Source: Planctomycetota bacterium (GTDB taxonomy: Bacteria; Planctomycetota; MHYJ01; JACQXL01; JACRIJ01). Taken from it: a stretch of DNA of 64,000 bases. The notes under the pieces are model-generated. The model was not told the DNA's origin. It was given only the letters and a program-made list of their open reading frames with translations, and did no database searches. How positions within the stretch are numbered: position 1 is the first letter of the stretch; every line of letters begins with the position of its first letter. This document shows positions 14,156 to 33,059 of the stretch, piece by piece. The stretch spans positions 1,763-65,762 of the forward strand of contig JACRIJ010000104.1 in assembly GCA_016220095.1 (NCBI GenBank), read 5' to 3'. A program made the translations under genes and the position numbers.

Positions 14156-14471
14156 TATATAGTAGACAGAATAAGTCGTTATAAGAAGGATGAGAGGTTC
14201 GGTGCCATGACATAATCGGCACAAAACGTAAAATGCGTGTATAACACATTATAATTCAATGCGTTATGTGTCAAACATGTCCAAACGTTCTTCAGCTTTT
14301 ACAATAAGCATCAATTATTAGACAGTTTGCATATTAACTCCATAGGACTTTTGGGGCATTTAACCCAGCGGTATTGGGTCTTTTGACCCAGTTTGGGGTA
14401 AAGCAAGAGTAAGAATGTTTTGATTTTTCCGAGAAATAGAAATTTTCAATGTTTTTTTAGGAGATGTTTCA

Positions 14472-15443: not shown

Positions 15444-15470
15444 CGTGCAAAAGAAAAATTTATGAATAAC

Positions 15471-15516
15471 ACAACAGCACCAAGATTGGAAAAACCTTTT
15501 GGTGCTGTTGTTTTTT
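15471..15516 (+). terminator. Rho-independent terminator after the omcS-like gene
   Basis: 13-bp stem ACAACAGCACCAA/TTGGTGCTGTTGT followed by a T-tract. Confidence 0.8.
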
Positions 15517-15574
15517 ACAGGGGTAATCCCCAAAATGGATATTGTTCCCAAAAGCATAAACCACGCTTAAAAAC

Positions 15575-16495
15575 ATGAAAAAACTTATAAAAACAGCAGT
15601 ATTATTAATTATGATGGCGGCCGTCGTATTTGCCGCCGAACGGCCCGGGGTTGTTTTCGTTCTTACAAAAGAAAAAAACAAGTTCAAGCAGTTATCCGCA
15701 ATGATGGTTTTCGCAAAGGACAAGGAAATCTACTTATGCGATTCCGAGGCCCAGAACATAAGGATATTTACGTTTGACGGCGCCGAGCAGACATGGTTTT
15801 CCGTCAAAAGACCCGCAGGTGTAACGAGAGATTCCGGTGGAAACTTTTATGTCCTTGAAACGGACGATAACGGGAGTAATTTTATAGGCATATACGATAA
15901 TAAATTTCAGAAAAAAAATTCCATAAAAATAACCGATTCGCCTTTTCCGCCAACCGAAAAATTCAGCCAGATTGCGATTGATAATGACGATAAGCTTTAC
16001 ATAACCGACGAAGGCAATAAAGTTGTCCTGACGGTGTCGGTGGATGGGAAATACCTGCGGCATTTCGGAAAATTTCCTCAGGAGGAAAACGGCAAGACAC
16101 TTCCGTCGATATCGGACATATGTGTTGACGGGCAAAACAAGAAACTCTATATTGCGGACGCAATTTCCTCTAAAATATACGTTTATAAACTAAACGGCAA
16201 ATATCTTTTTGAATTCGGCAAAGGCGGCGGCATTATGGGCGAACTCAGCCAGCCCTGCAGTGTGGCCGTGGATGCCGACGAAAACGCTTACGTGCTTGAC
16301 AAAATGCGTCACACCGTTATTGTTCACGACAAGGCAGGCAAATTTATTTACGAAATAGGCGGCAAGGGCGAGGCAGAGGGATGGTTTTATTTTCCGAGAT
16401 ATATAGCGATAGACCCCGATAAAAATCTTTATGTACTTGAGAGCATGATTAACAGGTTCCAGGCGCTGACGATTGAAAAGAAAAATGAAAAATGA
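15575..16495 (+). CDS. Periplasmic NHL-repeat beta-propeller protein
   Basis: Signal peptide; GELSQPCSVAVD and GWFYFPRYIAID NHL repeats. Confidence 0.85.
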   Translation: MKKLIKTAVLLIMMAAVVFAAERPGVVFVLTKEKNKFKQLSAMMVFAKDKEIYLCDSEAQNIRIFTFDGAEQTWFSVKRPAGVTRDSGGNFYVLETDDNGSNFIGIYDNKFQKKNSIKITDSPFPPTEKFSQIAIDNDDKLYITDEGNKVVLTVSVDGKYLRHFGKFPQEENGKTLPSISDICVDGQNKKLYIADAISSKIYVYKLNGKYLFEFGKGGGIMGELSQPCSVAVDADENAYVLDKMRHTVIVHDKAGKFIYEIGGKGEAEGWFYFPRYIAIDPDKNLYVLESMINRFQALTIEKKNEK

Positions 16496-17456
16496 CTCGG
16501 GTATAGAAAAAATTATAATGGTTTTGTTGATGCAGGCTTTCTTCCTCGGAAGCATTGTTGCGGATCAGCCGCCGGATGCCGGAAAGCGTCCGGTACAAAT
16601 ACGGTTTTCGTATTCCATAGACGGCTACAGCCGGAACATGCCGTTCAATTCACCCGCCGCATTCTGCCTTGACGAAAAACATAACGAACTGCTGATAGCC
16701 GATACCGGCAATAATGCGATAGGCATTTTTGCCGCGGATACCGGCGAATACAAAGGCCGGCTTGATTCCGCCGTGCCCCTGCAGGCCCCTTGCGGCATAG
16801 CAATAGACGCTGAAGACAGTATTTACGTCGCCTGCAGTGACAGTTCCGTGATAGAGATATTTGATTTTAAAGGCACAAATCTGGGCGGCATAGACGTCTC
16901 AGGCGCCGGGCAGAAAACGCCCGTAAAGCCCGGCAAACTTTACTGGGATGGTTTGGCGGAAGAGCTTTATGTGATTGACCGCGCCAACCAACAGGTGCTT
17001 ATCTGCAAGGACAGGAAAGTCTGGCAGAAAATACAGCCGCTTTCCGCGGATGCCGCCGGCAATGCGGATTGGAAGAATGCCCCCATGTTGCAGGATATTG
17101 CCGTAGATGACTGCGGAAAAATATACGTAATCAGTTCCATCGGCAATGCGGTTGCCGTTTTTGACCGCAATGGAAGTCCTGTAACGTCTTTCGGCAGGCA
17201 CGGCGATACGGCGGATACGGTTTCTTTTCCTGTAGCTGTTTCTATTGATAAAAAAAACCGTTTATGGATAATAGATAACTTCCGCCATTGCATCACTGTA
17301 TTTGACGCCCAGGGGAAATACATAACGGCCTGCGGCGCGTACGGGGCCGATCATGGAAACTTGTTTTTCCCGGTGGATATAATAGTCAAGGATGGCGCGC
17401 TGTACGTTCTTGAAAAAGGCGCGGAACGGGTGCAGGTTTTTGCGATTGTAGAGTAA
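16485..17456 (+). CDS. Periplasmic NHL-repeat beta-propeller protein
   Basis: FNSPAAFCLD, IADTGNN, VSFPVAVSID and LFFPVDI repeats. Confidence 0.85.
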   Translation: MKNDSGIEKIIMVLLMQAFFLGSIVADQPPDAGKRPVQIRFSYSIDGYSRNMPFNSPAAFCLDEKHNELLIADTGNNAIGIFAADTGEYKGRLDSAVPLQAPCGIAIDAEDSIYVACSDSSVIEIFDFKGTNLGGIDVSGAGQKTPVKPGKLYWDGLAEELYVIDRANQQVLICKDRKVWQKIQPLSADAAGNADWKNAPMLQDIAVDDCGKIYVISSIGNAVAVFDRNGSPVTSFGRHGDTADTVSFPVAVSIDKKNRLWIIDNFRHCITVFDAQGKYITACGAYGADHGNLFFPVDIIVKDGALYVLEKGAERVQVFAIVE

Positions 17457-17472
17457 TTTTGTATCTGCGTGT

Positions 17473-20340
17473 ATGAATAAAAGCATTTTTTTAACAATTT
17501 CGGCAGTAGTTTTATTATTGCCCGGTGCGGCATTTGCCGGGGACTATCACCGTGTGTGGGCGACTTCTACCCTGGTTTGTTCCGATTGCCATACCCTGCA
17601 CGCGGGTTCCGTGCCGTATCCGGTACTGCTCAAATACGCTACGGTAAACGAACTCTGCGCGTCCTGCCATGACGGTACGGATACGAAGGCGCCCGATGTA
17701 ATATCACCGGTGACAATGTACACGGGTGATGAACATTCCGGGGCCGGATTTTTTGCAAATACCGGAGGTTCCGCGAGCGATGTCGCGCACGACCTCGGCG
17801 TGTCGGCCGCAATTCCCATGAGTACCAAGCCGGCGATGACCCTGATATGCACTACATGCCACGATCCTCACGGGAACGGTTATTACAGAAATCTTAAGCC
17901 TGATCCGGACGGAGATACAAGCAATATAACCGTTACCATAGGCACAAATATGTTTCAGCAGAATTCACCTCCGATACCGCCGAATGCGGCAACTGTCGCC
18001 GATGCATATAAGGAGTCAAATATCGGATATAAATCCAACATCTCTGCATGGTGCAGTCAATGCCATGATAAACTTGCCTCTAATCAGGCAGGCACTCTCC
18101 CTTCGCATTTCAAAAGGCATCCCGCAGATGTTCCGCTTAATTCTGCCGGATATCATGCGGATACGGCCAACTGGATTACAAATCCGCTTGGAAATCCGAC
18201 AAGCGGCGGCGGCGTTGCAACGGGCGATGCGGTATACGGAATTCCACGGCTTAGATACCAGGTAAGTACCGCGACGGACTATGCGAGCGCTAAAACAGTT
18301 GCCGTTTCCAATCAGGTATTCTGCGGATCGTGCCATACGGCGCACGGTATGAAATACCAGAAAAACCTCGTTTGGCCGTACAGGAAACAGACAGGAATTG
18401 ACAATACCGATGCCTTTGCCGCATGTCAGCAGTGTCATAACCAGTCATATTGGAGTGGTTCTCCGCACGGAAACACCACAACCGGCGTGGCGCGTACTTC
18501 TTCCAATCCCACAGGGGCATGCAACCAGTGCCATGATATGCACGATGATGTTACATCTTACAATTACGCGCTTTATACGACAAATACAAATTCATTGTGC
18601 TTTACAACAGGTTGTCATGTAAATGCCTCTGCCAGCTACCCCGCGCAGGAGGCGGATCGTAATGCCGTGGGATACTTTACGACAAAACGCTGGCCTGGCC
18701 AGACTTCTTATGAAAACGCCACGTACTCTCAACACTATCTGGACGCGGACTGTATTTATCCCGGCAAAAGCTATTCTGCCGGCGATTGTAAGAATTGCCA
18801 CGACCCTCACGGTTCAGCCAATACCTATGATATGACCCTGAATACATATATAGACGGCGGCGTTTATACGAATTATCAGCTATGTTTTGATTGCCATAAC
18901 GAAACTACCGGGCCTGCGGGCATGAACATTGCCGGGAAATATGTAAAAAACCTGTATAGCATCGCGGATAACCAATCTGGGCATCAGATACGTAATTCCG
19001 CAAAATCAGTTTCAAATTTTGCAGGTTCCAAACTTGCCATTGGCGATAAACTGCCCTGCTACGACTGTCACGGGCCCCACGGTTCAAAAGGCAATAACGG
19101 CACCCAGCCGAACAAGAAAATTCTGAGTGATCAGCGCACAGGATGGTCAAATCTTGATACGGCTGTCGCCGCGAATAACCGTACGTTCTGCCTTGGTTGC
19201 CACGTCGCGTCCAACGGGGTAGCCGGTTCAAATACCGTGGAAGGCATAGCCATGAATACCATACCGGTATTTCCGTCAACCGGATTCCAGCCGCACGCAA
19301 CAACGGGCACAGATTCATGCAGTGACTGCCATGGCGATAATTACACGAACAACACGGCGCGAAATGCCCATCATCCGGATAATTCGGATTGTAAATTCTG
19401 TCATAATGCCGCGCAGGGCTCGCACAGGCAGGTAGTGCAGAACGGCGGTACGGGCGGCGATTTTGACGATACTACGCATCATATCGGGGATGTTGTGGGC
19501 ACGGAAAATGTTACGAATGCCGACTGTGTCATGTGCCATAAGCAAAGCAATCATCCATATACAACGGATGCCACGACAATCTACCTGAGAAACGTTGATA
19601 CCGGTGCGGCAATTACTTACGTAAGGGGAGACACCTCTTCGGCAAACCTGACGAATCTTGACAATTTTTGTCTTGCATGTCATGACGCTGCCGGCGCTAA
19701 TGGCGACACTACACCATTTTCGGATAATGCCGTTGCTCTGGATGTAAATGCTCAATTTAACACGGCAAATCCATCCCATCACGCCGTTAAAGGCGCAAGA
19801 TATACGCCGGCCGGCGCATCCGGTATTCTCGCAGCCGCGTTTGTTAACGGCTGGGCCGACAATAGCACCCTTCACTGCAGTGATTGCCATTGCACGGCAA
19901 CTAATGCGCACGGAGACGGCAAGGCTGTTGCAAGCAGGCCGTCTTTGATTAAAGGGTACACGTCGGGAACGGTCTATCCCGGCGGCACTGCCGGCGTTGA
20001 CGGGTACATCTGTTTTTTATGCCATGGTTACCTTACGTATGATACGCCTAATATAACGACACCGAATAATTCCAGGTTTGACCATAACGCGAATGGCGGA
20101 CATGCTACAAAGGATGTTTACAGGGGAATCTATTGTCTTGTATGCCACGGTGGATATGTTAAGGGTTATATACATGGAGAAAACGATACATCGGATATAA
20201 ATATAATGCAACATTTTCTGTCCGGCGCGGCTTTGCGCAGTTGGCAGAGATCCGGGGCAAATGAAAGCTGTAATACGACAGGCAGTATATCGGCATGTTC
20301 CCAGCATAACGGGGGCAAAACGTACGGTTATAATTACTAA
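17473..20340 (+). CDS. Extracellular multiheme cytochrome c (18 CxxCH + 1 CX4CH) with an N-terminal OmcS-like hexaheme domain
   Basis: Signal peptide; first six motifs colinear with 14472-15443; rich in T/N/G/A. Confidence 0.88.
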   Translation: MNKSIFLTISAVVLLLPGAAFAGDYHRVWATSTLVCSDCHTLHAGSVPYPVLLKYATVNELCASCHDGTDTKAPDVISPVTMYTGDEHSGAGFFANTGGSASDVAHDLGVSAAIPMSTKPAMTLICTTCHDPHGNGYYRNLKPDPDGDTSNITVTIGTNMFQQNSPPIPPNAATVADAYKESNIGYKSNISAWCSQCHDKLASNQAGTLPSHFKRHPADVPLNSAGYHADTANWITNPLGNPTSGGGVATGDAVYGIPRLRYQVSTATDYASAKTVAVSNQVFCGSCHTAHGMKYQKNLVWPYRKQTGIDNTDAFAACQQCHNQSYWSGSPHGNTTTGVARTSSNPTGACNQCHDMHDDVTSYNYALYTTNTNSLCFTTGCHVNASASYPAQEADRNAVGYFTTKRWPGQTSYENATYSQHYLDADCIYPGKSYSAGDCKNCHDPHGSANTYDMTLNTYIDGGVYTNYQLCFDCHNETTGPAGMNIAGKYVKNLYSIADNQSGHQIRNSAKSVSNFAGSKLAIGDKLPCYDCHGPHGSKGNNGTQPNKKILSDQRTGWSNLDTAVAANNRTFCLGCHVASNGVAGSNTVEGIAMNTIPVFPSTGFQPHATTGTDSCSDCHGDNYTNNTARNAHHPDNSDCKFCHNAAQGSHRQVVQNGGTGGDFDDTTHHIGDVVGTENVTNADCVMCHKQSNHPYTTDATTIYLRNVDTGAAITYVRGDTSSANLTNLDNFCLACHDAAGANGDTTPFSDNAVALDVNAQFNTANPSHHAVKGARYTPAGASGILAAAFVNGWADNSTLHCSDCHCTATNAHGDGKAVASRPSLIKGYTSGTVYPGGTAGVDGYICFLCHGYLTYDTPNITTPNNSRFDHNANGGHATKDVYRGIYCLVCHGGYVKGYIHGENDTSDINIMQHFLSGAALRSWQRSGANESCNTTGSISACSQHNGGKTYGYNY

Positions 20341-20343
20341 ATA

Positions 20344-21339
20344 ATGTTTTCGAAAATAATAAATAAACTCGCAATAATAATATTAATTGCCATCGCGGTG
20401 TTTCTGACAGTATTTGTGCTTTCTCCGCAGTGTTCCTTTGCGCCGTATTTTACGGGAGAAAAAATACGCCGGTGGTTTTTCATCGTGCTTGTTGCCGCTC
20501 TTTATATCGTTCTTACATTTTGTACGGTAGACCGTATATGGCGGCAGGTCAGGAGCAAATATAACAGCCCTTCCTGGTGGGGATCCATAATTTTTCATGC
20601 GAGTTTTTATGTAATAGTAACAGGCGCATGCATCAGTATAGGCGGAAGAAAAACAGGCCTGGAACTTTTTACGGAGAGCGAAACCGTAATTTTTTCAGAA
20701 AACAATTATCTTTTGCATGACCGGCCGCCTTTCGCAGTAAAATTGAACAGGTTTTTGCCCGTATTTGAAAACGACATGCCGGTTGATTACGCCTGCGATT
20801 TTTCAGTTTATTACGATACGGCAGAAGGATGGATGCAGGCAAGGAAGTCCGGCTTGAAGGTCAACATGCCCCTTGAAGAACAAGGGGTGTCTTTGGTGTT
20901 TAAGCGCTGGGGCTATTCCCCGAGGATTATAATTCGGGACAATGAATACAACGAAATTATCGGCATGTTTAACCTTAATCTCGGCGAAAAAATTGAGAAC
21001 GGGAATCCGCAAAAATTTTTTACCGATTTCACCAGCGTGCCAAATACCAATTTGAAATTGGAATTAAAATTTTATCCGGAAATGGAGAATGGGAAACATG
21101 TGCCCGCGTATACGGCGAGAAACCCCCGCATATACGCGAAATTGTATTCCGGCAAACGGGTTTATGTTGATGGTTATATTGCAATGAAAGAATCGCTTGT
21201 TTCCGATACGCTGACCCTTACATTTGACGATTTTAATTACTGGGTCGGCGTTGAGGTTGTCAACGACATCGGAGAAAACATTGTCTTTGCCGGTTTTGTA
21301 ATTGCCGTAATAGGATTGGCATTTAGAATGCTTTTTTGA
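20344..21339 (+). CDS. ResB/CcsB-like cytochrome c biogenesis protein
   Basis: TM helices with WGSIIFHASF, LKVNMPL, C-terminal DIGENIVFAGF TM; adjacent to ccsA. Confidence 0.75.
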   Translation: MFSKIINKLAIIILIAIAVFLTVFVLSPQCSFAPYFTGEKIRRWFFIVLVAALYIVLTFCTVDRIWRQVRSKYNSPSWWGSIIFHASFYVIVTGACISIGGRKTGLELFTESETVIFSENNYLLHDRPPFAVKLNRFLPVFENDMPVDYACDFSVYYDTAEGWMQARKSGLKVNMPLEEQGVSLVFKRWGYSPRIIIRDNEYNEIIGMFNLNLGEKIENGNPQKFFTDFTSVPNTNLKLELKFYPEMENGKHVPAYTARNPRIYAKLYSGKRVYVDGYIAMKESLVSDTLTLTFDDFNYWVGVEVVNDIGENIVFAGFVIAVIGLAFRMLF

Positions 21340-21385
21340 ACCAAACATTGAACTTAATTGAACCGGATTGAACAACGTTGAACAA
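21336..21385. repeat. TTGAAC tandem array (5 copies)
   Basis: ttgaaccaaacattgaacttaattgaaccggattgaacaacgttgaac. Confidence 0.65.
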
Positions 21386-21394
21386 TTTTAATAT

Positions 21395-22219
21395 ATGACA
21401 AACTTGGAATTAATATTATTAAAAATTACAATAGGTCTTTACCTGGTAAGTAGCCTGTGGCTGGCTGGCGGTTTTATTTTTAACCGTGAAAAATTAAGAA
21501 AATTTTTTGCATTGCCGGTATTAATCGCCCTTGCGGCGCATACGGCGGTGATTATTGTGCGCTGGAGCGCCACGGGCCACGGCCCGGTGATGAAGGACTA
21601 TGAAAACGCCCTGCTTGGCGCCTGGTTGACGGTGGCTTTATATTTACTGTTGGTATTCAAATGGCGCGAAATGGCCGTTATAGGCATAGTTATAGCCCCG
21701 CTCGCCATGCTCCTGCTCGGGTACGCGTTTATGACGGAACCAGTCCTGGAGCGGCTTTCGCCGGGGTATAAATCCTTTTGGCTTTACGTGCACGTATTTA
21801 CCGCATGGCTTGCGTTCGGCGCTTATGCGATCGCGTCCGGATTTGCAGTTGCGTTTTTTATGCGCGGTCATTATGACAAAAAATCCGTACAAACGAAAAT
21901 TCCAGAGTTGTCTGAACTTGATTTGACCGCGTTTCGCATAGTCCTTTTCGGATTTATACTGCACGCAATAATGATAGCCGCGGGTTCCATTTGGGCGGCA
22001 AAATTGTGGGGGAGCTACTGGTCGTGGGACCCGATAGAAACATGGTCGCTGATATCCTGGCTTTGCTACGGGATAATAATCCATTTGCGATTGGCCTTTG
22101 CCTGGAAAAATCAGAGGTTTGCCGTGATGATAATGCTGGCGCTTGTGACGGTTATAATAGCCTGGTTAGGAATAAACTGGATACCGTCAAGCGACCATGT
22201 ATTCAGCAAGTTGGAATGA
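21395..22219 (+). CDS. ccsA: System II cytochrome c synthase CcsA/ResC
   Basis: WWD motif WAAKLWGSYWSWDPIETWS; WLYVHV; C-terminal SDHVF His. Confidence 0.92.
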   Translation: MTNLELILLKITIGLYLVSSLWLAGGFIFNREKLRKFFALPVLIALAAHTAVIIVRWSATGHGPVMKDYENALLGAWLTVALYLLLVFKWREMAVIGIVIAPLAMLLLGYAFMTEPVLERLSPGYKSFWLYVHVFTAWLAFGAYAIASGFAVAFFMRGHYDKKSVQTKIPELSELDLTAFRIVLFGFILHAIMIAAGSIWAAKLWGSYWSWDPIETWSLISWLCYGIIIHLRLAFAWKNQRFAVMIMLALVTVIIAWLGINWIPSSDHVFSKLE

Positions 22220-22260
22220 TTACGGATTCTAAGATTGAAAGATTTTGAGATTGGAAGATT
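22219..22260. repeat. 8-nt xxxAGATT array
   Basis: gattacggattctaagattgaaagattttgagattggaagatt. Confidence 0.7.
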
Positions 22261-22267
22261 ATTGAGA

Positions 22268-23752
22268 ATGCTTAAAAACAAGAAAATACTGCTTATAACG
22301 CCGCCTTATCATTGCGGCGTTGTGGAATCCGCCGGCAGATGGCCGAATCTCGGCCTGCTTTACATCGCGGGTGAACTTCGTAAAACGGGCTTTGAACCGG
22401 TTTATTACGATGCCATGGCAAAATTCCATACAATGGAAGAGGTCGTGCGCACCATTAAAGATACACAGCCAGGCGCGGTCGTAATTACCGCTATTACCGC
22501 CACCATAAATACTGCACTGGAAGTTCTAAAGCACGTAAAAAAAATCGGTCCGGACATTATTACAGTGCTTGGCGGAATTCATCCTACCTTTTGCAGTGAG
22601 CAAATACTTCAGGAAAATACGGATATAGTTGATTTCTGTTGTATAGGCGAAGGCGAACATACATTACAGGAATTACTTCTTACTGTGGATGCCCTGCGAT
22701 GCGATTACGACAAAAACCTGCTTCAGGCAGTCAGGGGAATAGCTTTTATGTATAACGGTCAAGCCGTCAAAACTGCGTCAAGGCCGTTTATAGAAGACCT
22801 TGACACGCTTTCACCGGCCTGGGATATCGTCAACTGGAAAGACTATCCGCTTTACTTCATAGATAATTCCATAGTGGCAATAGTTTCCTCTTCCAGAGGA
22901 TGCACCAATCACTGCGCATTTTGTTCCCAGCATAAATTCTGGAACAGCACGTACAGAGAACGGGATCCCTGGAAATTTGCGGATGAAATGGAACTGCTCG
23001 CGGCGGAATACGGCATAAATGTTTTTTTCATAGCCGACGAATACCCCACCCGTTCCAGGGAACGCTGGGAGAAAATACTGGATATTCTTATTGAAAAAAA
23101 TCTCGGCGTGCACATATTGCTTGAAACTTGCGTAGCGGACATCATTCGCGATGCGGATATCCTGTGGAAATACCGCAAGGCAGGCATAATGTTCGTTTAT
23201 CTCGGCGTAGAATCCACAAAGGATTCCAGGCTTGAGATGTTCAAAAAAGACATAAAATTTGAACAGAGCCGCGATGCCATAAAATTGCTCAAGACCGCCG
23301 GAATGATAACCGAAAGTTCCCTTATTATCGGAATGCCCGACGAAACGCCGGGCACCATAGCGGAAACGCTTGAACTGGCGTTTCTCTATGGCACGGATTA
23401 TATGCATTTTCTGTTTATTACGCCGTGGCCTTACGCGGATATGTACGAACAGCTGAAGACTTTCATAGAGGAAACGGATTTTTCAAAATACAATCTTGTT
23501 GAACCGATAATACGCTCCAATTACATGACCCGGAAGGAACTTATGCAATCGGTGCTTAACTGCTATAAAGAATATTATTCCCGCAGGATACCGGAATGGC
23601 ATGCGATGCGCGGCGATGAATTCAAAAAACAATGTCTTCTGAAAGGAATGAAGGCTATAATGGAGAATTCATTCCTGAAAAAGCACATGCACGAAGTCAA
23701 GAGTTTTAAGTCCGGCGTTCCGGGGCCTGAGTTGCCGGTCTCGGGCCATTGA
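22268..23752 (+). CDS. Cobalamin-binding (class B) radical SAM enzyme, BchE-like fold
   Basis: N-terminal B12 domain (PNLGLLYIAG, LGGIHPTF, GEGE); SSRGCTNHCAFC CxxxCxxC; LGVES. Confidence 0.88.
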   Translation: MLKNKKILLITPPYHCGVVESAGRWPNLGLLYIAGELRKTGFEPVYYDAMAKFHTMEEVVRTIKDTQPGAVVITAITATINTALEVLKHVKKIGPDIITVLGGIHPTFCSEQILQENTDIVDFCCIGEGEHTLQELLLTVDALRCDYDKNLLQAVRGIAFMYNGQAVKTASRPFIEDLDTLSPAWDIVNWKDYPLYFIDNSIVAIVSSSRGCTNHCAFCSQHKFWNSTYRERDPWKFADEMELLAAEYGINVFFIADEYPTRSRERWEKILDILIEKNLGVHILLETCVADIIRDADILWKYRKAGIMFVYLGVESTKDSRLEMFKKDIKFEQSRDAIKLLKTAGMITESSLIIGMPDETPGTIAETLELAFLYGTDYMHFLFITPWPYADMYEQLKTFIEETDFSKYNLVEPIIRSNYMTRKELMQSVLNCYKEYYSRRIPEWHAMRGDEFKKQCLLKGMKAIMENSFLKKHMHEVKSFKSGVPGPELPVSGH

Positions 23753-26232
23753 TGTTCATGCTTAAAAAACTAATGAAATACGCAGACTATTTTTTGTTGA
23801 CAATATACGCAGTATTATTCATCGCATCTGCGGAAACCGTTTTTGCCGATGGCGATCTTTACGGTTCCATCAGCACGCGTTTTGCGGAAAACAAGGTCGC
23901 TGACGACATTACGTCCAGACTGTTTAATACGCTGAGTTTCGGATACCAGGATTCTGTATTGGACAATATCGCCGTGCAGTTTAACGGAAATATGACTTAC
24001 AGCGACGATGACCAGAAAAAATATGAAGATTTTATCCCGTGGTTCGGGCTTTCCCTGTCCAGAGACAATATCGCGTGTTCGGTAAATTACAGCGATTACG
24101 AAAACAAAAACTATAAGAACGCTTCGGGCATACTGTCAACATCCGTGCTTAGTACCGGCCTGAATTTTTCGCCGCAGGACCTTCCTTCAATCGGACTTAG
24201 TTATTCCGTGCGCCAAAGTGAAGATGACCTTTCGCCCAAGACAGCGGATAATAAAATCGCAACCTATACGATGAATACCAATTACCATTTAGGAATTTTT
24301 TACGCGTTTTACAACCGCAATAATAACAAATATACCAACAAAATCTCCGGATTTTTAACGATAACGCTTTCTTCCGGAATTTCTTATATTGCCACAGACG
24401 TATTGTCCGCGGTTTTTGTATCGGACACGGCTAATAACAGGATAGTTAAATATTCAAATGACGGAACATATATAAGTTCTATAGGCAATGGAGGCACTGC
24501 CTCCGCCGAATTCAATTCGCCAAAGGGCATATGCCTGGATCCGCAGGGAAATCTTTACGTGATAGACTCCCTGAACAGCCGCGTGCAGAAGTTTGATAAC
24601 GAAGGCAATTTTATACTGAAATGGGGCGATGCCGGTACAGGCAATGGCGAATTCAATACGCCATCGGGCATAGCTTCCGATGGCGTCGCTGTGTATGTAA
24701 CGGATGCCGGCAACAATCGTGTGCAGAAATTTGACCTGAACGGGGTTTTTGTAGCCATGTGGGGAAGCACAGGTTCTTCCGCTGGGGAATTCATAGGTCC
24801 GCAGGGTATCGCGGCGTATGGCTCTTCCGTGTATGTCGTTGACACAAATAATCATCGTGTGCAGAAATTCAGCGTTGACGGGAGTTTTCAACTTCAGTGG
24901 GGAAGCTCGGGAAACAATATAGGCGAATTTTTTATGCCGTCAGGAATAGCAGTGGATTCGGCCGGGTTCGCTTATGTTACGGATTCGGCAAACAACAGGG
25001 TGCAGAAATTCACAGGTACAGGTGGATTCGTGTCCCAATGGGGTTCGTATGGCGACCAGGACGGGCAGTTTGCTACGCCGTTTGGCATAGCAGCTGATCA
25101 GGGAAACAATATTTACATTACGGATCAAAATAATACCAGAATTGAAAAATTTTCATCTAACGGTATATTCCTGTATTCATGGGGCAAGGTGTATATTCCC
25201 AACGCGGCGCAAAGGACTGAAAACGTTCAGGATTCTTACGGCGTTGGATTTTCCTACCAGCCGTGGAATTTTATGAATATCAGCGTAAATACGAATTTCA
25301 ATTCGTCAGAATCTTTTAAGAATCAGGAAGTTACGGGAAAAGCTTTTCAGGAATCATATACCGTAATTTTGTCAATCAAGCCGGTTTCACCGGTAAATAT
25401 ATCATATTCATTTACAAGCCAGCGTTTACGCAATGAAAGCCAGTCCGGCCTGGAAACACAGCAGACTGACATAAACAGTACGCTTTCAGCAACGCTTGCT
25501 TTGCACAGGAATTTATCGCTGTCGTCCGGTTACGCGGTACAATCTGTTTTCGGCGACGGGCTTGAGGATGTTGACAGCACAACATGGCGCATAGGCATGC
25601 TTACACAGCCGTTTTCAAAACTTTTGGCAACCGTTAATTATTCTAATATTGTTGCCGAAAACAACGGCGAAAAAGTGTCGGATTCAGACAGCTTAGGGTT
25701 GTCCACGCAATGGAAAATGATGTCCAAGACCAGTTTAAACCTTGATTATTATTACAATTTTAATTATAATATACTTACAAACCAGGCATCGGTATCCAGG
25801 TTGATGAAAGCGGAATGGTTTGCTTCACCGGTGGAGAACTTCGTATGGAATCTCCGGTATGAAAAGAATATGGCCGAAAGCGAAGCAGGCAATGCCGGCG
25901 CCGATGCTTACAACACATATATATATTACATGCTATCGGGTGAAACTTCTGCAGGCGCGAATTTCGGATACAGGACAAATGAAAACCCGGCAGGCGATGC
26001 GGCAAGGTCTTTTTCGCAGACTTATACTTTTGAAAAGCGTATATCGGAAATAACGGATTTTTTTCTGTCATTTATAGCTGAATCAGGGACTTATTCCAGC
26101 CAGGTCATAAGCCCGAGGATAATGTTCAGGATTACCGATACCACGGCGCTTTCGTTGAATTCGCAAAAATTCCTGAAGGGGCCGTCGGAAGGCGATTATA
26201 CGATGTCCATGGAATTATCCATTAGATTTTAA
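23752..26232 (+). CDS. Putative outer-membrane beta-barrel with an inserted NHL beta-propeller
   Basis: Signal peptide; amphipathic aromatic strands flank ~6 NHL repeats (FxxPxGIA..YVTDxxNNRVQKF); C-terminal LSIRF. Confidence 0.72.
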   Translation: MFMLKKLMKYADYFLLTIYAVLFIASAETVFADGDLYGSISTRFAENKVADDITSRLFNTLSFGYQDSVLDNIAVQFNGNMTYSDDDQKKYEDFIPWFGLSLSRDNIACSVNYSDYENKNYKNASGILSTSVLSTGLNFSPQDLPSIGLSYSVRQSEDDLSPKTADNKIATYTMNTNYHLGIFYAFYNRNNNKYTNKISGFLTITLSSGISYIATDVLSAVFVSDTANNRIVKYSNDGTYISSIGNGGTASAEFNSPKGICLDPQGNLYVIDSLNSRVQKFDNEGNFILKWGDAGTGNGEFNTPSGIASDGVAVYVTDAGNNRVQKFDLNGVFVAMWGSTGSSAGEFIGPQGIAAYGSSVYVVDTNNHRVQKFSVDGSFQLQWGSSGNNIGEFFMPSGIAVDSAGFAYVTDSANNRVQKFTGTGGFVSQWGSYGDQDGQFATPFGIAADQGNNIYITDQNNTRIEKFSSNGIFLYSWGKVYIPNAAQRTENVQDSYGVGFSYQPWNFMNISVNTNFNSSESFKNQEVTGKAFQESYTVILSIKPVSPVNISYSFTSQRLRNESQSGLETQQTDINSTLSATLALHRNLSLSSGYAVQSVFGDGLEDVDSTTWRIGMLTQPFSKLLATVNYSNIVAENNGEKVSDSDSLGLSTQWKMMSKTSLNLDYYYNFNYNILTNQASVSRLMKAEWFASPVENFVWNLRYEKNMAESEAGNAGADAYNTYIYYMLSGETSAGANFGYRTNENPAGDAARSFSQTYTFEKRISEITDFFLSFIAESGTYSSQVISPRIMFRITDTTALSLNSQKFLKGPSEGDYTMSMELSIRF

Positions 26233-26237
26233 GGAGT

Positions 26238-26822
26238 ATGCTGATGATAAGAAATTATTTGCAAGGCGCTATAAAACAGGCAATGATTATACCGTTCCTG
26301 GTCATATTGATTGGTTGCAGCAGTGTTTCAAATTCAGCCTATCTTCATCCTGAATTTGATATGGCCGCAGTACGCAAGGTTGCCGTTGTTACATTTGCAA
26401 ATTATTCCAAAGAACCCATGGCCGGCGAAAAAGTGACCAATATGTTTTTTACCCAGCTTCTCAGCACAGGGCTTTTTGACGTGTCGGAACCGGCAAGGAC
26501 CGAGGAGATCATTAAGAAACACAAAAACGGCTCTGGTATTGATTTGCTTGTCATGCAGAAAATGAAGGAATCATTGAATATCCAGGCAGTTTTTATGGGA
26601 TCTGTGGATGAATATTCTTTTGCCTCCTTCGGCAGTAAAACCTATCCGCTTGTCACAATTTCCGCCCGGCTCGTGGATTGCGAAACAGGCACGATACTTT
26701 GGACGTCTACAATTACAGGTGACGGATCATCGTCCGTTCCGGTGCTGAATATTGGCGCGATAAAAACACTGCCGGAACTTGCACAGGCACTGTGTGTCAG
26801 GATTGTGAGCACTATAAAATAA
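26238..26822 (+). CDS. PelC/CsgG/DUF799-like lipoprotein
   Basis: Lipobox LIGC; VAVVTFANYS, GSVDEY, ISARLVDCETGTILW. Confidence 0.75.
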   Translation: MLMIRNYLQGAIKQAMIIPFLVILIGCSSVSNSAYLHPEFDMAAVRKVAVVTFANYSKEPMAGEKVTNMFFTQLLSTGLFDVSEPARTEEIIKKHKNGSGIDLLVMQKMKESLNIQAVFMGSVDEYSFASFGSKTYPLVTISARLVDCETGTILWTSTITGDGSSSVPVLNIGAIKTLPELAQALCVRIVSTIK

Positions 26823-26832
26823 GGGATAAAAC

Positions 26833-27591
26833 ATGAAAAAAAAATATCTGTTATTTTTGCTTTTTAATGCCGTTCTGTTTGCGCCGGGCGGATGTAGAAC
26901 ATCCAATGTAGTTTCTTCCGCTTCACAGCCTGCGGAAATAGACGCTTTTTACGTCAGAAGGATTGCCGTTGTGCCGTTTGACAACCTTACCGGTCTTCCG
27001 AACGATGCAGGCAGAAAAATTACAAATACACTCGTGGCGGATGTTTATTCCCGGAATGCGTTTGAACTTCTTAACAGCGGTGAATTGGAAGGCTTTCTTA
27101 CGGATGAAAGGATACGCTATTCTTCCGATTTTACCATGCAGAAAACACAGAAACTCCTTTCCAAATACAATGTGCATGCCGTGCTTCTCGGCAGTATCAA
27201 TGAATATTCCTACGCAAGCGCGGGTACGGAACAGCTTCCGGTAATAAGCATTTCCGCAAGGATGCTTGATACGCGTACGGCAAAAATAATATGGGCGTAC
27301 AATGTAACTGCCGAAGCGCGCGAAACGGCATTCGGATTGGGTTCTATAAGAAGCCTCGCTAATTTGACAGAACTTGCGATTAATGATATAGTTGACAGTT
27401 TAATTGCGGCAAAATCCGAAACCGCCTTATCCGGCAGTCAGGGTGCGGATGCCGTGCAAACGGATAGGAGTACGCCTGAAAATCCAAATGTGCAATCGTC
27501 CATAATAATTATAGATGAAAGTGAAAAAAATTATACCAGGGAAAAATCCAAAGAATATTGGTATAAAATAGTCAAAGACTACAAAAAATAG
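26833..27591 (+). CDS. PelC/CsgG/DUF799-like lipoprotein (paralogue)
   Basis: PGGC; IAVVPFDNLT, GSINEY, ISARMLDTRTAKIIW. Confidence 0.75.
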   Translation: MKKKYLLFLLFNAVLFAPGGCRTSNVVSSASQPAEIDAFYVRRIAVVPFDNLTGLPNDAGRKITNTLVADVYSRNAFELLNSGELEGFLTDERIRYSSDFTMQKTQKLLSKYNVHAVLLGSINEYSYASAGTEQLPVISISARMLDTRTAKIIWAYNVTAEARETAFGLGSIRSLANLTELAINDIVDSLIAAKSETALSGSQGADAVQTDRSTPENPNVQSSIIIIDESEKNYTREKSKEYWYKIVKDYKK

Positions 27592-27600
27592 CATTATAGA

Positions 27601-29289
27601 ATGAGAAAAAATACTATGAAAAAAACAATTCCTCTTTTGATAACTGCCATGCTTGCGGTAACAGTAATGGCGTTGCTTTCGTCTCCATCGCCTGCGCAGA
27701 TTGGCAAATCCTGTCTTGACTGTCATAAGGATATCAGCCTTCTTTTAAGCGAAAAAAACGTGCACCCCCCGTTCAATGTGAATTCCTGTGATTCCTGCCA
27801 TGATACTACCACGCATGGTCAGATGGTGGAAAACGGCCCCGCATTGTGTCTGACCTGTCACGATGGGATAAAAAAAGAAACCGGTTCGCACTTTCCGCAT
27901 TCGCCCGCAGAAAGCAACTGCCTGTCCTGCCATAATCCGCACGCATCGGCGAATTCCAAGCTTCTCATCAAACCTCAGGACCTGCTGTGCACTTCCTGTC
28001 ATGACGGCATTACGAAAAAATTAGCCGAAAAACACCTGCATGAGCCGTTTAAATCAAAAGATTGCCTGTCATGCCATAAACCCCACGGCAGTGATACGCC
28101 GCATTTGCTTACGGAAAAAACGCCCGGTTTGTGCACGCAATGCCATGACACATCCGATAAAACCATTGCGTCTGCGCATAAAGATATTTCTATAAAAAAT
28201 TCAAATTGTCCAGTCTGTCATAATCCGCACTCTTCTTCGGAGCCGAAGCTGATAGAAAAAAACCAGCACTATCCTTTTGAAACCGGCAATTGCGCTTCCT
28301 GCCATAAACAGAATGCGGACAGAATAGAACTTATTATGCCTGCGGATAAACTTTGCCGTACGTGTCACGGCAAAATCGGCAACGAACCGGAAAAAACATA
28401 TCATCATTCGCCTGCGGAAAGCGGTGAATGCCTGTCCTGTCACAATCCGCACGCAACGTCCAGGAAAAAACTTCTTAATGATGAAATTAACCCCGTATGT
28501 TTCTCCTGCCATTCTGACAAGCAGGAGCTTCTTGGCAAAGAAATCGTGCATCAGCCGTTTAAAAACGATTGCACGGCCTGCCACAGTCCGCATTCGTCGG
28601 CGCTTGCCGGACTGATAAAAAAGAACGCGGTAGACCTGTGCGGTACATGCCACGCGAATCTGCCGCTGGAATTCGCAAAAAAAACCGTGCATTTTCCGTT
28701 TAAAAACGGTTCCTGCATGTCCTGTCACAATCCCCATGCGTCATCAACGAACGGACTTCTCAAAAAAAACCAAAAGGAATTGTGCCTTGAATGCCATCTT
28801 GATATAAAAGCCAAGCTTGTGGCAAAACGGACGCATTCCGGCACAGGCGGAGATTGCACCGATTGCCATTTGCCACATAGTACGGAAACAGAATCTTTGC
28901 TTAATATTGATAAGGAATTGTCCTGTTTTTCCTGCCATCCGAAAGAGGATTTTACTGACAAAAAATACCAGCATTTTCCCGTTATGAAAAACAAATGCCT
29001 TACATGTCACGATCCGCATGGAACGGATTTCAAGGCAAACCTGAAAAAATCGGTAAATGATACCTGTACCCAATGCCATCCCGCACGGCATAAGGAATTC
29101 GTGCACTCCGTGGACGCATTGCCGTCCGAAAAAATTGATATGTCAGCCGAGGATAAAACCCGGCTTGACGCGGAGGGAAGGCTTTCATGCGTCTCCTGCC
29201 ATAGTCCGCACGGTTCCAGGAACCCGTTTTTCCTTATTGACGAAATGACGCAAGGACAGCTCTGTTACAGGTGCCACAAACAAAACTGA
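27601..29289 (+). CDS. Periplasmic doubled-CXXCH multiheme cytochrome c (22 CxxCH)
   Basis: Signal peptide; repeating HxP..CxxCHxPHxS...LCxxCH units; manual count 22. Confidence 0.92.
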   Translation: MRKNTMKKTIPLLITAMLAVTVMALLSSPSPAQIGKSCLDCHKDISLLLSEKNVHPPFNVNSCDSCHDTTTHGQMVENGPALCLTCHDGIKKETGSHFPHSPAESNCLSCHNPHASANSKLLIKPQDLLCTSCHDGITKKLAEKHLHEPFKSKDCLSCHKPHGSDTPHLLTEKTPGLCTQCHDTSDKTIASAHKDISIKNSNCPVCHNPHSSSEPKLIEKNQHYPFETGNCASCHKQNADRIELIMPADKLCRTCHGKIGNEPEKTYHHSPAESGECLSCHNPHATSRKKLLNDEINPVCFSCHSDKQELLGKEIVHQPFKNDCTACHSPHSSALAGLIKKNAVDLCGTCHANLPLEFAKKTVHFPFKNGSCMSCHNPHASSTNGLLKKNQKELCLECHLDIKAKLVAKRTHSGTGGDCTDCHLPHSTETESLLNIDKELSCFSCHPKEDFTDKKYQHFPVMKNKCLTCHDPHGTDFKANLKKSVNDTCTQCHPARHKEFVHSVDALPSEKIDMSAEDKTRLDAEGRLSCVSCHSPHGSRNPFFLIDEMTQGQLCYRCHKQN

Positions 29290-29294
29290 ATATT

Positions 29295-29744
29295 ATGAAA
29301 AAAAATATTAAAATCATTACATTATTGGCGGCAATTATCATTGCGATTGCCGCGGCTTTTTTTGCATTCGTGTTTGATAAGCCGGTTTCCTATAAGAACG
29401 GGGTTAAATCCGTTTCCATAACTGTAAAACACGAAATGTATAAGAATTTTTCGGAATCTCACACACTTAAGCCTGGAGAGCAGGTTTATATTCATGATAC
29501 GAATTATGTTTTTGTTATTACGGATTTTATGCCTGATTTCAGGATAAAAAGGCAGACTGGTGAAGCGTATTCCAGAACCGATGCGCCCGATAATCCCGCC
29601 GTAAAAATCGCGCTCTATGTTGAAAATGAAAAATTGGATGAAGCCTGGTATATCCTGAAAAAAAAGGATTATTATAAGGTATTTAAACCCGGCATTTATT
29701 TCGTTATAGATAATATCGTTTACGGAGACACCAAGTATGAATAG
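29295..29744 (+). CDS. Membrane-anchored hypothetical protein resembling a ResB periplasmic subdomain
   Basis: N-terminal TM; DFMPDF...SRTDAPDNPAVKI motif. Confidence 0.6.
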   Translation: MKKNIKIITLLAAIIIAIAAAFFAFVFDKPVSYKNGVKSVSITVKHEMYKNFSESHTLKPGEQVYIHDTNYVFVITDFMPDFRIKRQTGEAYSRTDAPDNPAVKIALYVENEKLDEAWYILKKKDYYKVFKPGIYFVIDNIVYGDTKYE

Positions 29745-31692
29745 AAAAAGACTCTTTATTTTTACAGTTCTTACGGCCTTTCTCTGCGCGGCATTTCTGC
29801 AATCGTGCCAGAACGGCACCAGGCCTGCGCCGAAAAAGAAAACATGCATGGAATGCCACGCGCATGAGAATATGCAGGATTTGATGAATAAAAAAGTTGT
29901 CCATGCGCCGTTCAAATCCCAGGATTGCGAATCTTGCCATGAAAGGCATTTATTCGGCGACAAATTGAAATTGAAACATTGGGACAGTAAGCTGTGTGCA
30001 AATAGCGAATGCCACGCCGATTATGCCTCTGATGCCAAGAAAGCGGTTTCCGAGGCGGTACATCCGCCTTACGCTAACTCGCCCTGCTGGCAGTGCCACT
30101 CTCCGCATGCCTCGGATTATCCGAAACTGTTGAAGGCGAAATCGCCCGACATGTGTTACGAGTGTCATGATAGAAGTGCGTATTCCGCGCAAAACGCGCA
30201 TACGCCGGTTAAAGAAGGCAAATGCCTGTCATGTCATGCCGCCCATGAGTCTAATAACAAAGGGCTTCTTCAAAAACCTGTAAACCAGATATGCGCCGAT
30301 TGCCATGATACGGGCACGGACAAAATGAAAACTGCGCATAATAACTTTAATATTTCCAAAAGCGCTTGCTCTTCCTGCCATACGCCGCATTCGTCCGCAC
30401 AAAAAGCCCTGTTAAAAAATACCGTTCACGCGTTTATTTTGGATAAAAACTGCGTTTCATGCCATGCGGATCCTTTGGCGCCGGAAAAACTGGTTAAACC
30501 CGTTAAAGAACTCTGTCTGTCCTGCCATGATAAACAAACAAATGAACTTTCGGATAAACATATACATAAGCCGTTCATTGACGATGATTGCCTGAAATGC
30601 CACGCCGCACATGCTTCGCAGACGGAAAAACTCCTTATTCTGCCCGTAAGCTCACTTTGTATTTCATGCCATAAACAGGAAACTACGCCCGATATGGCAC
30701 AGCATAAGCCGTATATGTCCGGAGATTGTTTGTCATGCCACAAGGCTCATTCAAGCGGCCAGTCGAAACTTGTGAAAGATAATCTTGAGCAAAACTGCGT
30801 CTCATGTCACGCATCCGTGACGGAAGAGCGGAAAAAATCCCATGTGCATAGTCCGTTTGGCGGGGATTCATGCCTTCAATGCCATAGTCCGCACCAGTCA
30901 AAATATAAATTCATATTAAAACAGGAACCTGGCAAATTATGTGCCGAATGCCACGAGGAAACCGTTGCGGGTGGCAGGAAAGAGACTTATCAGCATACGC
31001 CTTTTTATAATCAGAATTGTTTTACCTGTCATTCCGGCCATGCCGCGGATTATAAGGCTTTGCTTGTTAAAAAGGAAAAAGAATTATGCATGGATTGCCA
31101 TAAGAACAGTGCGTCTGAACTTATGGCGTCTTATCAGCATACGCCGGTTAAAAATGGCGAATGCTCGTCCTGTCACAATCCGCATAGTTCCAATATAAAA
31201 AACTATCTGAAAAAATATAAAGAGGCATTATGTTTCGATTGCCATCCGAAAATTACCGAAGAGCTTAAACAGTCCTCCAGGCACCAGCCCGCATTGCAGG
31301 GAGACTGCATAAAATGCCATTCTCCGCATGGTTCCGAAATCGAAAATCAGCTCCGGCGCGCGGATATGGGGTTGTGCACCCAGTGCCATCCCAACGTCGC
31401 AAAAGAGCTCCAAAAGAAATTTCCTCACCAGCCCGTGAAGGACGAAGAATGCCTTGAATGCCATTCTCCGCATGCATCAGCGCATGAAGCCCTTATGTCA
31501 GAGCCGGCCCCGGAACTTTGCCTGAAATGCCATAAACCGGACGCGGTTTTTACCGCCGCGCACAGGAATTTTGACGTGAAAAAGACAGACTGCCTGCAGT
31601 GCCATACGCCACACGCCGCGGACCAGAAAGGCCTGCCGCTGTCCCATCTGCATAAGCCGTATAAGGACGGGGATTGCTCGGAGTGCCACTGA
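29737..31692 (+). CDS. Lipoprotein doubled-CXXCH multiheme cytochrome c (25 CxxCH + 1 CX4CH)
   Basis: Lipobox LQSC; manual count, includes CANSECH. Confidence 0.92.
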   Translation: MNRKRLFIFTVLTAFLCAAFLQSCQNGTRPAPKKKTCMECHAHENMQDLMNKKVVHAPFKSQDCESCHERHLFGDKLKLKHWDSKLCANSECHADYASDAKKAVSEAVHPPYANSPCWQCHSPHASDYPKLLKAKSPDMCYECHDRSAYSAQNAHTPVKEGKCLSCHAAHESNNKGLLQKPVNQICADCHDTGTDKMKTAHNNFNISKSACSSCHTPHSSAQKALLKNTVHAFILDKNCVSCHADPLAPEKLVKPVKELCLSCHDKQTNELSDKHIHKPFIDDDCLKCHAAHASQTEKLLILPVSSLCISCHKQETTPDMAQHKPYMSGDCLSCHKAHSSGQSKLVKDNLEQNCVSCHASVTEERKKSHVHSPFGGDSCLQCHSPHQSKYKFILKQEPGKLCAECHEETVAGGRKETYQHTPFYNQNCFTCHSGHAADYKALLVKKEKELCMDCHKNSASELMASYQHTPVKNGECSSCHNPHSSNIKNYLKKYKEALCFDCHPKITEELKQSSRHQPALQGDCIKCHSPHGSEIENQLRRADMGLCTQCHPNVAKELQKKFPHQPVKDEECLECHSPHASAHEALMSEPAPELCLKCHKPDAVFTAAHRNFDVKKTDCLQCHTPHAADQKGLPLSHLHKPYKDGDCSECH

Positions 31693-31737
31693 ACGAATTT
31701 GAGATTTCAAATTTGAGATTCGTTATAAGGAGTTTAT

Positions 31738-33012: not shown

Positions 33013-33059
33013 AAACCCGCTTGCTTTTTCCTGTTTTTTCTTATACACTCTGTATAATT

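Follow-up and report, generated by a model that had tools for sequence, protein, structure and literature searches.

A gene at 22268–23752 of a 64,000-nt stretch of Planctomycetota DNA (contig JACRIJ010000104.1, positions 1,763 to 65,762; the whole stretch is hereafter the window) encodes a predicted cobalamin-binding radical S-adenosylmethionine (SAM) enzyme of a family that is sister to the bacteriochlorophyll cyclase BchE. Across many phyla, genes of this family sit beside ResB and CcsA, the System II proteins that export haem and attach it to c-type cytochromes. This recurrent pairing points to an undescribed haem-directed step in the making of electron-conducting cytochromes. We favour, with a probability of about 45%, the reading that the cytoplasmic enzyme tailors haem before its export by a dedicated ResB–CcsA pair. 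The fold and motifs of the enzyme, the position of its family relative to BchE and its conserved gene linkage are matters of observation, and we begin with the gene itself.

22268–23752, + strand: cobalamin-binding radical SAM enzyme of the BchE-sister family, 494 amino acids (Pfam, NCBIfam, tree, AlphaFold model and conserved positions)

The open reading frame (ORF) extends over 22235–23752 (+) from an upstream TTG, and translation from the ATG at 22268 gives a protein that begins MLKNKKILLITPP. Because all homologues begin at this ATG, 22268–23752 is the likely gene. Residues 16–137 matched the B12-binding domain (PF02310; 98.4 bits, cut-off 32.1) and residues 207–371 the radical SAM domain (PF04055; 85 bits), and the cluster motif C212-x3-C216-x2-C219 (CX3CX2C) was invariant in 22 of 22 aligned family members. 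An AlphaFold model built from 22 family sequences reached a predicted local distance difference test (pLDDT) score of 89.1 and matched the solved class B enzymes AprD4, TsrM, CysS, MgmA, TokK and OxsB (Foldseek E 6e-22 to 1e-19) with query-normalised template modelling scores (TM-scores) of 0.62–0.71. Together, the domain matches and the model identify the window protein as a class B (cobalamin-dependent) radical SAM enzyme, for which the use of cobalamin is predicted. An earlier sequence-only reading of this DNA had named such an enzyme, which the domain and motif matches bear out; it had also described the gene as directly following ccsA, as it does (ccsA ends 48 bp before the ATG of the enzyme), and its stop codon as overlapping the start of a barrel gene. 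Here the overlap stands (TGA at 23750–23752 and ATG at 23752, read as TGATG), and the barrel is plausible from sequence alone. A GC-rich hairpin of eight pairs lies at 23724–23747, at the extreme end of the radical SAM ORF and before the overlapping next start.

Comparison with characterised families placed the protein close to, but outside, BchE. Its best NCBIfam match was the BchE equivalog model TIGR02026, on which it scored 408 bits, under the cut-off of 481.35; the next-best model, HpnJ, gave 127 bits. Family members from five other genomes scored 413–456 bits on TIGR02026, none of them over the cut-off, whereas true BchE sequences from 401 sampled Pseudomonadota genomes scored 741–840 bits. 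Over its full length, the window protein is about 36% identical to true BchE. Across 38 family rows, 109 positions reach a conservation of at least 90%; at 76 of these, among them a run in the C-terminal domain, five true BchE sequences have the identical residue, and the other 33 are specific to the family. The radical SAM tree comprised 55 rows: 38 of the first 44 loci, the window protein, the five true BchE, eight intermediate (‘mid’) matches to the BchE model, two related rows and, as outgroup, one paralogue from the window's own genome; the partial rows L015, L039, L040, L042, L043, L044 and L145 were left out, as was L143, a duplicate of L012. In this tree the true BchE sequences formed a group of their own (support 100%, branch length 1.76), and the window protein fell within a ten-row group, also with 100% support, nine of whose rows are Ccs-linked; the deepest splits between the groups lack resolution. 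By these comparisons, the enzyme family is a distinct sister family of BchE.

True BchE was considered for the window protein and rejected: the score lies below the TIGR02026 cut-off, the protein branches outside true BchE and phototrophy genes are missing. The genome of the window (91% complete, 3.59 Mb) gave no match to the reaction centre family Photo_RC (PF00124), and its best BchL match reached 30 bits against a cut-off of 345. The statement in the sequence-only reading that the window holds no photosynthesis genes was borne out and extends, for Photo_RC and BchL, to the whole genome. Its pointer to tetrapyrroles through BchE gained ground as well, since BchE is by far the nearest characterised relative of the enzyme by bit score and by shared conserved positions. 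Mainly because BchE is far closer than the other characterised class B enzymes, we infer a porphyrin-type substrate and BchE-like chemistry. BchE is the anaerobic Mg-protoporphyrin IX monomethyl ester oxidative cyclase, and a 2026 in vitro study (PMC13598231) counts it among the few non-methylating class B enzymes. As described there, BchE oxidises the 13-propionate methyl ester in vitro with an olefin as side product, and hydrogen is abstracted from the propionate carbon adjacent to the ring (PMC13598231).

Two other kinds of match to the BchE model were seen. Eight of the 401 sampled Pseudomonadota genomes contain a long-branch group (L135–L142) that scores 520–560 bits on the BchE model, over the TIGR02026 cut-off and far under the 741–840 bits of the other BchE matches. 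The other comes from a Geobacter genome (L159, G003:C30), where a ResB–CcsA pair and a 10-haem cytochrome are likewise followed by a class B radical SAM enzyme, but of another kind, which is 29% identical to the window protein and reaches 174 bits on the BchE model.

The genomic surroundings of the family provided the link to cytochrome maturation. Homologues were collected from species-representative genomes in two scans, one queried with the window protein and one with a 22-sequence alignment; the alignment scan returned at least 598 relatives, and the 115 loci retrieved by both scans collapsed to 109 distinct ones. Within 5 kb of the enzyme gene, CcsA was found in 57 of the 109 loci, ResB in 58 and either of them in 64. 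Where both flanks extended to 4 kb or more, Ccs genes were present in 35 of 52 loci, and in 34 of 45 once fused forms (at least 600 amino acids) were set aside. By our own arithmetic, which takes 2–10 CcsA-like matches per 3–6-Mb genome and a distance of 5 kb, CcsA would be expected this close at about 0.6–3.5% of positions. Given that the window genome has just two CcsA genes in its 3.59 Mb and that CcsA neighbours the enzyme in more than half of the loci, the adjacency is not due to chance.

Other features of the neighbourhood recurred with the Ccs genes. A small three-helix membrane protein of a family that we refer to by the working name u128 (the window copy has 128 amino acids) was encoded within 1.5 kb of the enzyme in 44 of the 109 loci, a cytochrome with at least three CXXCH motifs within 8 kb in 51, and at least one of the three features (Ccs, u128 or cytochrome) in 81. 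Unsupervised clustering of the neighbours ranked CcsA (56 loci), ResB (55), u128 (33) and a family of cytochromes with about 11 haems (29) at the top, followed by PAS sensors (21), NHL proteins (20), ABC ATPases (14), thioredoxin-like proteins (9) and LuxE-like proteins (8). The recurrent neighbouring cytochromes carry 10–61 haems. Ccs linkage is spread over at least 15 bacterial phylum labels, as well as Methanoperedens and other archaea, and the adjacency persists at 41–64% identity while gene order varies: Thermincola ferriacetica (L176) has an 18-haem cytochrome, ResB, CcsA, an NHL protein and then the enzyme; Methanoperedens has the enzyme, ResB, CcsA and then cytochromes with 18–28 haems; and a Carboxydocellales genome has three copies of the enzyme, two of them beside ResB–CcsA and one of these downstream of an ORF with 61 CXXCH. 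The co-occurrence of homologues with ccsA and multihaem genes, which the sequence-only reading had named as a check, is thus strongly positive. Of 401 Planctomycetota genomes sampled, 4 have the family, and it is missing from all seven listed genomes of the same order; such a patchy occurrence fits a transferable accessory module. A full-text literature search, with subscription-only papers and supplements outside it, found no paper that connects ResB, CcsA or CcsBA with a BchE-like protein or a B12 radical SAM enzyme.

The Ccs genes beside the enzyme were compared with those elsewhere. The window genome has only two CcsA, and the second, together with its own ResB, lies on another contig (C74) with no radical SAM neighbour; because of this other pair, the window ResB–CcsA is a second, cluster-dedicated copy. 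Other family-carrying genomes have 4–10 CcsA-like matches each. In a CcsA tree of 39 rows (37 distinct), 17 of the 22 distinct CcsA encoded within 3 kb of the enzyme grouped on a single side of a split supported at 97% by the Shimodaira–Hasegawa-like approximate likelihood ratio test; that side otherwise holds only CcsA from two loci that also carry the enzyme, and the remaining five linked CcsA are placed among 13 other sequences. The CcsA tree and the radical SAM tree share the same sub-groupings. These patterns are indicative of co-inheritance of CcsA and the radical SAM gene, on a comparison in which the unlinked CcsA come from seven genomes only.

Together, these results allow us to propose a role for the enzyme. 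We suggest that its substrate may be haem, or the immediate iron-porphyrin precursor, bound for the adjacent ResB–CcsA (System II) exporter and synthase, and that the neighbouring giant multihaem cytochromes would receive the tailored haem. By analogy with BchE, the reaction could be a C–H abstraction on a propionate side chain that yields a hydroxy or keto, olefin or vinyl product. Methylation is the commonest class B reaction; on this analogy, BchE-type side-chain oxidation is likelier. The sequence-only reading had put forward a modifier, for example a methylating one, of either haem or apocytochrome. A haem-directed role in maturation is the better supported half of that proposal, through the Ccs linkage and the kinship with BchE, and the apocytochrome half did not hold up well, as peptide-modification models score weakly. 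Neither methylation nor a tuning of the redox properties of the wire, which that reading also suggested, drew support from the results.

Several points weigh against haem tailoring. The substrate, the reaction and the hand-over to CcsBA are deduced, the type of reaction purely by analogy, and we know of no modified c-type haem in any organism that carries the family. The locus sample was selected by family-derived peptide patterns, and many of its contigs are short. In 28 of the 109 loci, no Ccs, u128 or cytochrome gene was found in the fetched flanks; fused forms of at least 600 amino acids are Ccs-linked in only 2 of 17 cases, and the Actinomycetota/Coriobacteriia members examined lie in unrelated contexts. 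ResB–CcsA pairs also occur beside multihaem cytochromes without the enzyme (L155, L156 and L161), so dedicated Ccs systems do not require it. Last, the linked CcsA has no altered haem site beyond two clade-specific positions, W138 and L204. In the window CcsA, W209, W211 and D212 (WWD) are conserved together with H133, H230 and H268, and this canonical WWD/His site gives no sign of adaptation to a different haem.

The loci that lack Ccs, u128 and cytochrome neighbours, together with the Actinomycetota members and the fused Nitrospirota forms in other contexts, would be compatible with an unrelated function, such as lipid or cofactor tailoring (true BchE included), carried along as a hitch-hiker on transferred electron-transfer islands; many members also bear the JGI label ‘anaerobic magnesium-protoporphyrin IX monomethyl ester cyclase’. 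Against this stand an adjacency kept at 41–64% identity through at least 15 phylum labels and archaea with gene order changing, the overlap of the enzyme gene with the starts and stops of its neighbours, and, for true BchE, exclusion by model score, tree and absent phototrophy genes. We consider a hitch-hiking gene of this kind quite improbable.

The lack of any clear change in the CcsA haem site would suit a different role, in which the enzyme binds cytoplasmic haem and, as a HemW-like chaperone, feeds it unchanged to the dedicated ResB–CcsA for proteins of 18 to 61 haems. HemW, itself a radical SAM protein that resembles HemN, delivers haem to respiratory enzymes, and descent from tetrapyrrole enzymes and the same Ccs linkage data would fit delivery as well as they fit tailoring. 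However, the window protein keeps the radical SAM cysteines and the 76 positions shared with BchE, which suggests catalysis, an argument weakened by the fact that HemW also keeps its cluster. A LuxE-like partner and a second B12 radical SAM enzyme in Nitrospirota loci (see below) further suggest a multi-step chemical pathway, and the HemW model TIGR00539 gave just 24.8 bits against a cut-off of 205.4. Delivery of unmodified haem is, in our view, unlikely.

The haem biosynthesis genes of the carriers bear on a third possibility, that the enzyme performs oxygen-independent late haem biosynthesis, for example a propionate-to-vinyl decarboxylation of the HemN/AhbD type on iron-coproporphyrin or coproporphyrinogen, and so supplies ordinary haem b beside the exporter. 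In the 91%-complete window genome, ferrochelatase, HemJ (PF03653) and HemY had no match, and the best HemN match, at 37 bits, was below cut-off. Neither AhbC nor AhbD was found over cut-off (best AhbD 132 against 500 bits) among 11 scanned of 35 CX3CX2C ORFs, the 11 being those judged most AhbC/AhbD-like or B12-type. Another Planctomycetota genome (G002) likewise gave no ferrochelatase or HemN match. The attack of BchE on the propionate carbon next to the ring, with an olefin by-product, as given in the BchE study (PMC13598231), would also be in keeping with such a role. By contrast, ferrochelatase was present in four of five other family-carrying genomes and HemN was over cut-off in two of them, the family is rare (4 of 401 Planctomycetota genomes and 0 of the 7 same-order genomes listed), and three copies occur in one genome, two of them beside ResB–CcsA. 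This patchy, multi-copy, Ccs-tied pattern fits an accessory of particular cytochrome clusters and not a housekeeping step, and we therefore doubt that the enzyme serves ordinary haem supply. The window genome encodes many haem-binding motifs despite the missing late-pathway matches. Its GyrA shares 60–67% identity with GyrA of uncultured Planctomycetota and about 62% with that of Scalindua/Brocadiaceae.

In the window, the enzyme gene belongs to a tightly packed array on the same strand, which runs from 14472 to 33407. Its other members are:

14472–15443, + strand: multihaem cytochrome c, 323 amino acids, 6 CXXCH (Pfam Paired_CXXCH_1, motif count)
15575–16495, + strand: NHL-repeat beta-propeller protein, 306 amino acids (Pfam NHL, 58.2 bits)
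16473–17456, + strand: NHL-repeat beta-propeller protein, 327 amino acids (Pfam NHL, 61 bits)
17473–20340, + strand: multihaem cytochrome, 955 amino acids, 18 CXXCH and one CX4CH (Pfam, motif count)
20344–21339, + strand: ResB/CcsB-like haem-handling membrane protein, short at 331 amino acids (PF05140, 58.9 bits, cut-off 24.6)
21395–22219, + strand: CcsA, System II cytochrome c synthase subunit, 274 amino acids (PF01578, 130.8 bits)
23752–26232, + strand: secreted NHL-propeller protein, putative outer-membrane barrel, 826 amino acids from the ATG (Pfam, sequence features)
26238–26822, + strand: CsgG/GNA1162-like lipoprotein, 194 amino acids (Pfam; homologues in L011, L029, L032 and L147)
26833–27591, + strand: CsgG/GNA1162-like lipoprotein, 252 amino acids (Pfam)
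27601–29289, + strand: multihaem cytochrome, 562 amino acids, 22 CXXCH (Pfam, motif count)
29271–29744, + strand: ORF of 157 amino acids with no family match in Pfam or NCBIfam
29737–31692, + strand: multihaem cytochrome, 651 amino acids, 25 CXXCH and one CX4CH (Pfam, motif count)
31738–33012, + strand: multihaem cytochrome, 424 amino acids, 15 CXXCH and one CX4CH (Pfam, motif count)
33021–33407, + strand: u128, small membrane protein with three hydrophobic helices (family comparison)

On the NCBIfam model TIGR03144, the window CcsA scored 163.6 bits, under the cut-off of 187.6. The protein at 23752–26232 has a signal-peptide-like N terminus and NHL repeats (122 bits) at about residues 200–480; the propeller is inserted between strand-rich segments and the C terminus reads ...ELSIRF, from which an outer-membrane barrel is plausible. 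A homologue follows the radical SAM gene in the same position in a Planctomycetota relative (G710), whose whole cluster is syntenic with that of the window. No thioredoxin-like partner of the ResA/CcdA type was found among the 19 window ORFs scanned at 7673–34279. The window cytochromes carry no unusual haem motif that would demand a special lyase: apart from three CX4CH their sites are ordinary CXXCH, with no CXXCK and no CX3CH. Terminator-like sites were not in excess across 14350–34300 (26, against 24.1 +/- 4.8 in shuffled sequences). Among sequencing runs, 20344–26232 matched DNA runs from a single groundwater metagenome study and no RNA run.

The cytochrome directly upstream of ResB belongs, in related clusters, to one family with 10–19 CXXCH (among others, in L164, L166, L168, L170, L004, L008, L176, L181 and L215), of which the window protein at 17473–20340 is a member. 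The conserved C-terminal tail of this family has two extra cysteines at a spacing of 4–13 residues, after which come C-x(1-3)-H and, in many cases, K/S-x-Y; in the window protein the pair is C933 and C942-SQH, and many of the ResB-upstream cytochromes also have a lone cysteine in a YCN..TM motif. From their sequence context, these extra cysteines are candidates for a disulphide or an odd cofactor site. Such conserved cysteines (the C-terminal pair and YCN..TM) might alternatively speak for a modification, methylating or other, of the apocytochrome itself before Sec export. Class B enzymes do modify peptides, both in pathways of ribosomally synthesised and post-translationally modified peptides (RiPPs) and on methyl-coenzyme M reductase (MCR), and the window protein has weak matches to models of RiPP and MCR methylases. 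These matches (ApyD 108.5, TIGR03975 104.7 and the MCR glutamine methylase 65.8 bits) compare with 408 bits for BchE, however, and Pfam found no peptide-recognition domain in the window protein. Moreover, the gene is linked to CcsA and ResB (56 and 55 loci) and to u128, and not to any one cytochrome, the commonest family being present at 29 loci. A peptide substrate thus has little in its favour, and we rate it as very unlikely.

The small membrane protein u128 contains three hydrophobic stretches, its C-terminal tail is basic, and H14, G69, R72, K96 and H97 are invariant. In the relatives compared (L001–L008, L016 and L147), its gene directly precedes the radical SAM gene, in most cases with an overlap; among the eight loci of the closest clade, the u128 stop overlaps the enzyme start by 17–20 nt in seven and by 8 nt in the eighth, as computed by hand from the locus coordinates. 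The window copy lies 9.3 kb downstream of the enzyme, at the end of the cytochrome array. With E values up to 1e-3 accepted, a profile search retrieved 382 representative clusters, almost all of them 100–140 amino acids long, and a few relatives are fused to SurA/PPIase, PKD/NHL-type or PsbP-like domains, which are usually extracytoplasmic. The family matched no named one beyond sub-threshold CopD hits in 7 of 17 members (best E 0.003); it had no relative in the PDB, and the nearest named Atlas clusters (CopD, DUF4149 and DUF2214) scored 0.82–0.83. Possible roles for u128 are a membrane haem or metal site, or an anchor. In an Aminicenantes locus, only u128 and the enzyme are kept, beside a ChaN-type haem-binding protein.

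Fusions offered a second view of the partners. Neither the six long relatives of the enzyme nor the best 150 relatives of u128 joined any of the enzyme, CcsA, ResB and u128 to one another. Instead, four of the six long relatives (P0124, P0125, P0127 and P0128) carry a C-terminally fused LuxE-like acyl-protein synthetase (PF04443, from precomputed Pfam assignments), a fusion confirmed in three of the five long relatives scanned. The LuxE-like protein is encoded by a separate neighbouring gene in eight loci, and in the loci of Nitrospiraceae/Thermodesulfovibrio and in one Geobacter locus (the set L221:5793-7301, L203, L205, L222, L225, L217 and L014) this gene lies between CcsA and the enzyme. 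In the Nitrospirota loci, the LuxE-like gene adjoins that of another B12 radical SAM enzyme, which is only distantly related (22% identity). An adenylating partner of the LuxE type fits chemistry on a carboxylate. Other Nitrospirota members (L018–L025 and L174–L194) are about 645 amino acids long with a C-terminal extension, which in L018, the sole one scanned, is an SRPBCC/Polyketide_cyc domain; the fused forms L018 and L020 adjoin TonB-dependent receptors.

These partners invite a bolder version of haem tailoring, one that we regard as speculative and rather unlikely, in which a BchE-derived enzyme would turn haem b into a new side-chain-modified haem and thereby constitute an undescribed, optional enzymatic layer of System II. 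The novel haem might, for instance, bear one more vinyl group, or a propionate that has been oxidised, desaturated or cyclised. The LuxE-like carboxylate activator and the second B12 radical SAM enzyme would join in the conversion in some lineages, and the co-evolving ResB–CcsA, with the histidine-bearing u128, would export the modified haem into giant cytochromes of extracellular electron transfer, where its attachment could involve the extra conserved cysteines of the partner cytochrome. If this is true, either BchE descends from a haem-tailoring enzyme of this sort or the tailoring enzyme descends from BchE.

Several other genes of the window were noted around the array. Just upstream of it, 12766–14031 encodes a BioF/Kbl-family acyltransferase of the pyridoxal-phosphate-dependent type, which scored 415 bits on the BioF model (cut-off 426) and 293 bits on that of 5-aminolevulinate synthase (cut-off 339). 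A UbiA-family prenyltransferase follows u128 at 33569–34279; its nearest model is EboC (144 bits, cut-off 250), and none of the first 44 related loci has a homologue. Large FG-GAP repeat proteins are encoded near the cytochrome cluster at 7673–12013 (1446 amino acids) and at 61599–62678 (359 amino acids). A stretch of low GC content at 50000–54000 (0.36–0.38) encodes two DNA methyltransferases (a D12-class N6-adenine enzyme and an N6_N4_Mtase) and several ORFs with no family match, and is possibly a restriction-modification or mobile island.

Maturation of c-type cytochromes is thought to need only the transport of haem, the reduction of thiols and the formation of thioether bonds, and to our knowledge no radical SAM step has been described in Systems I, II or III. 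If haem tailoring, or a special supply of haem, is indeed at work here, then some ‘wire’ cytochromes carry a haem other than ordinary haem c or depend on a dedicated supply line. Either outcome would bear on what sets the conductivity and the redox potential of cytochrome wires, on why such cytochromes might be difficult to express heterologously and on the evolutionary origin of the anaerobic chlorophyll cyclase. The carriers of the enzyme–Ccs operons include metal-reducing and methane-oxidising microbes, and Thermincola is in culture.

Finally, the system can be set beside those already known. With BchE, the window protein shares the three-part class B architecture over its full length; in contrast to BchE, its family occurs in non-phototrophs, beside haem-attachment genes and not beside bch genes. 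HemN, AhbD and HemW offer a possible functional analogy, as radical SAM proteins which, under anoxia, modify or carry the propionate side chains of iron-porphyrin or porphyrinogen, but they lack a cobalamin domain and fall into other subfamilies, and the HemN structure 1olt matched only the core of the window model (query-normalised TM-score 0.33). BchQ and BchR are class B radical SAM methyltransferases that act on bacteriochlorophyllide side chains in the pigment pathways of green sulfur bacteria; they would be a precedent for methylation of a tetrapyrrole by a BchE-like enzyme, in pigment synthesis and not in cytochrome maturation. A parallel to the linked ResB–CcsA is found in the dedicated haem lyases, extra cluster-encoded copies of the cytochrome c synthase that serve particular cytochromes: NrfEFG or NrfI/CcsA2 for CXXCK, and CcsA1 for the CX15CH site of MccA. 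We know of no radical SAM enzyme in these systems. The window CcsA has canonical motifs, and the cytochromes of its array mostly carry ordinary CXXCH.

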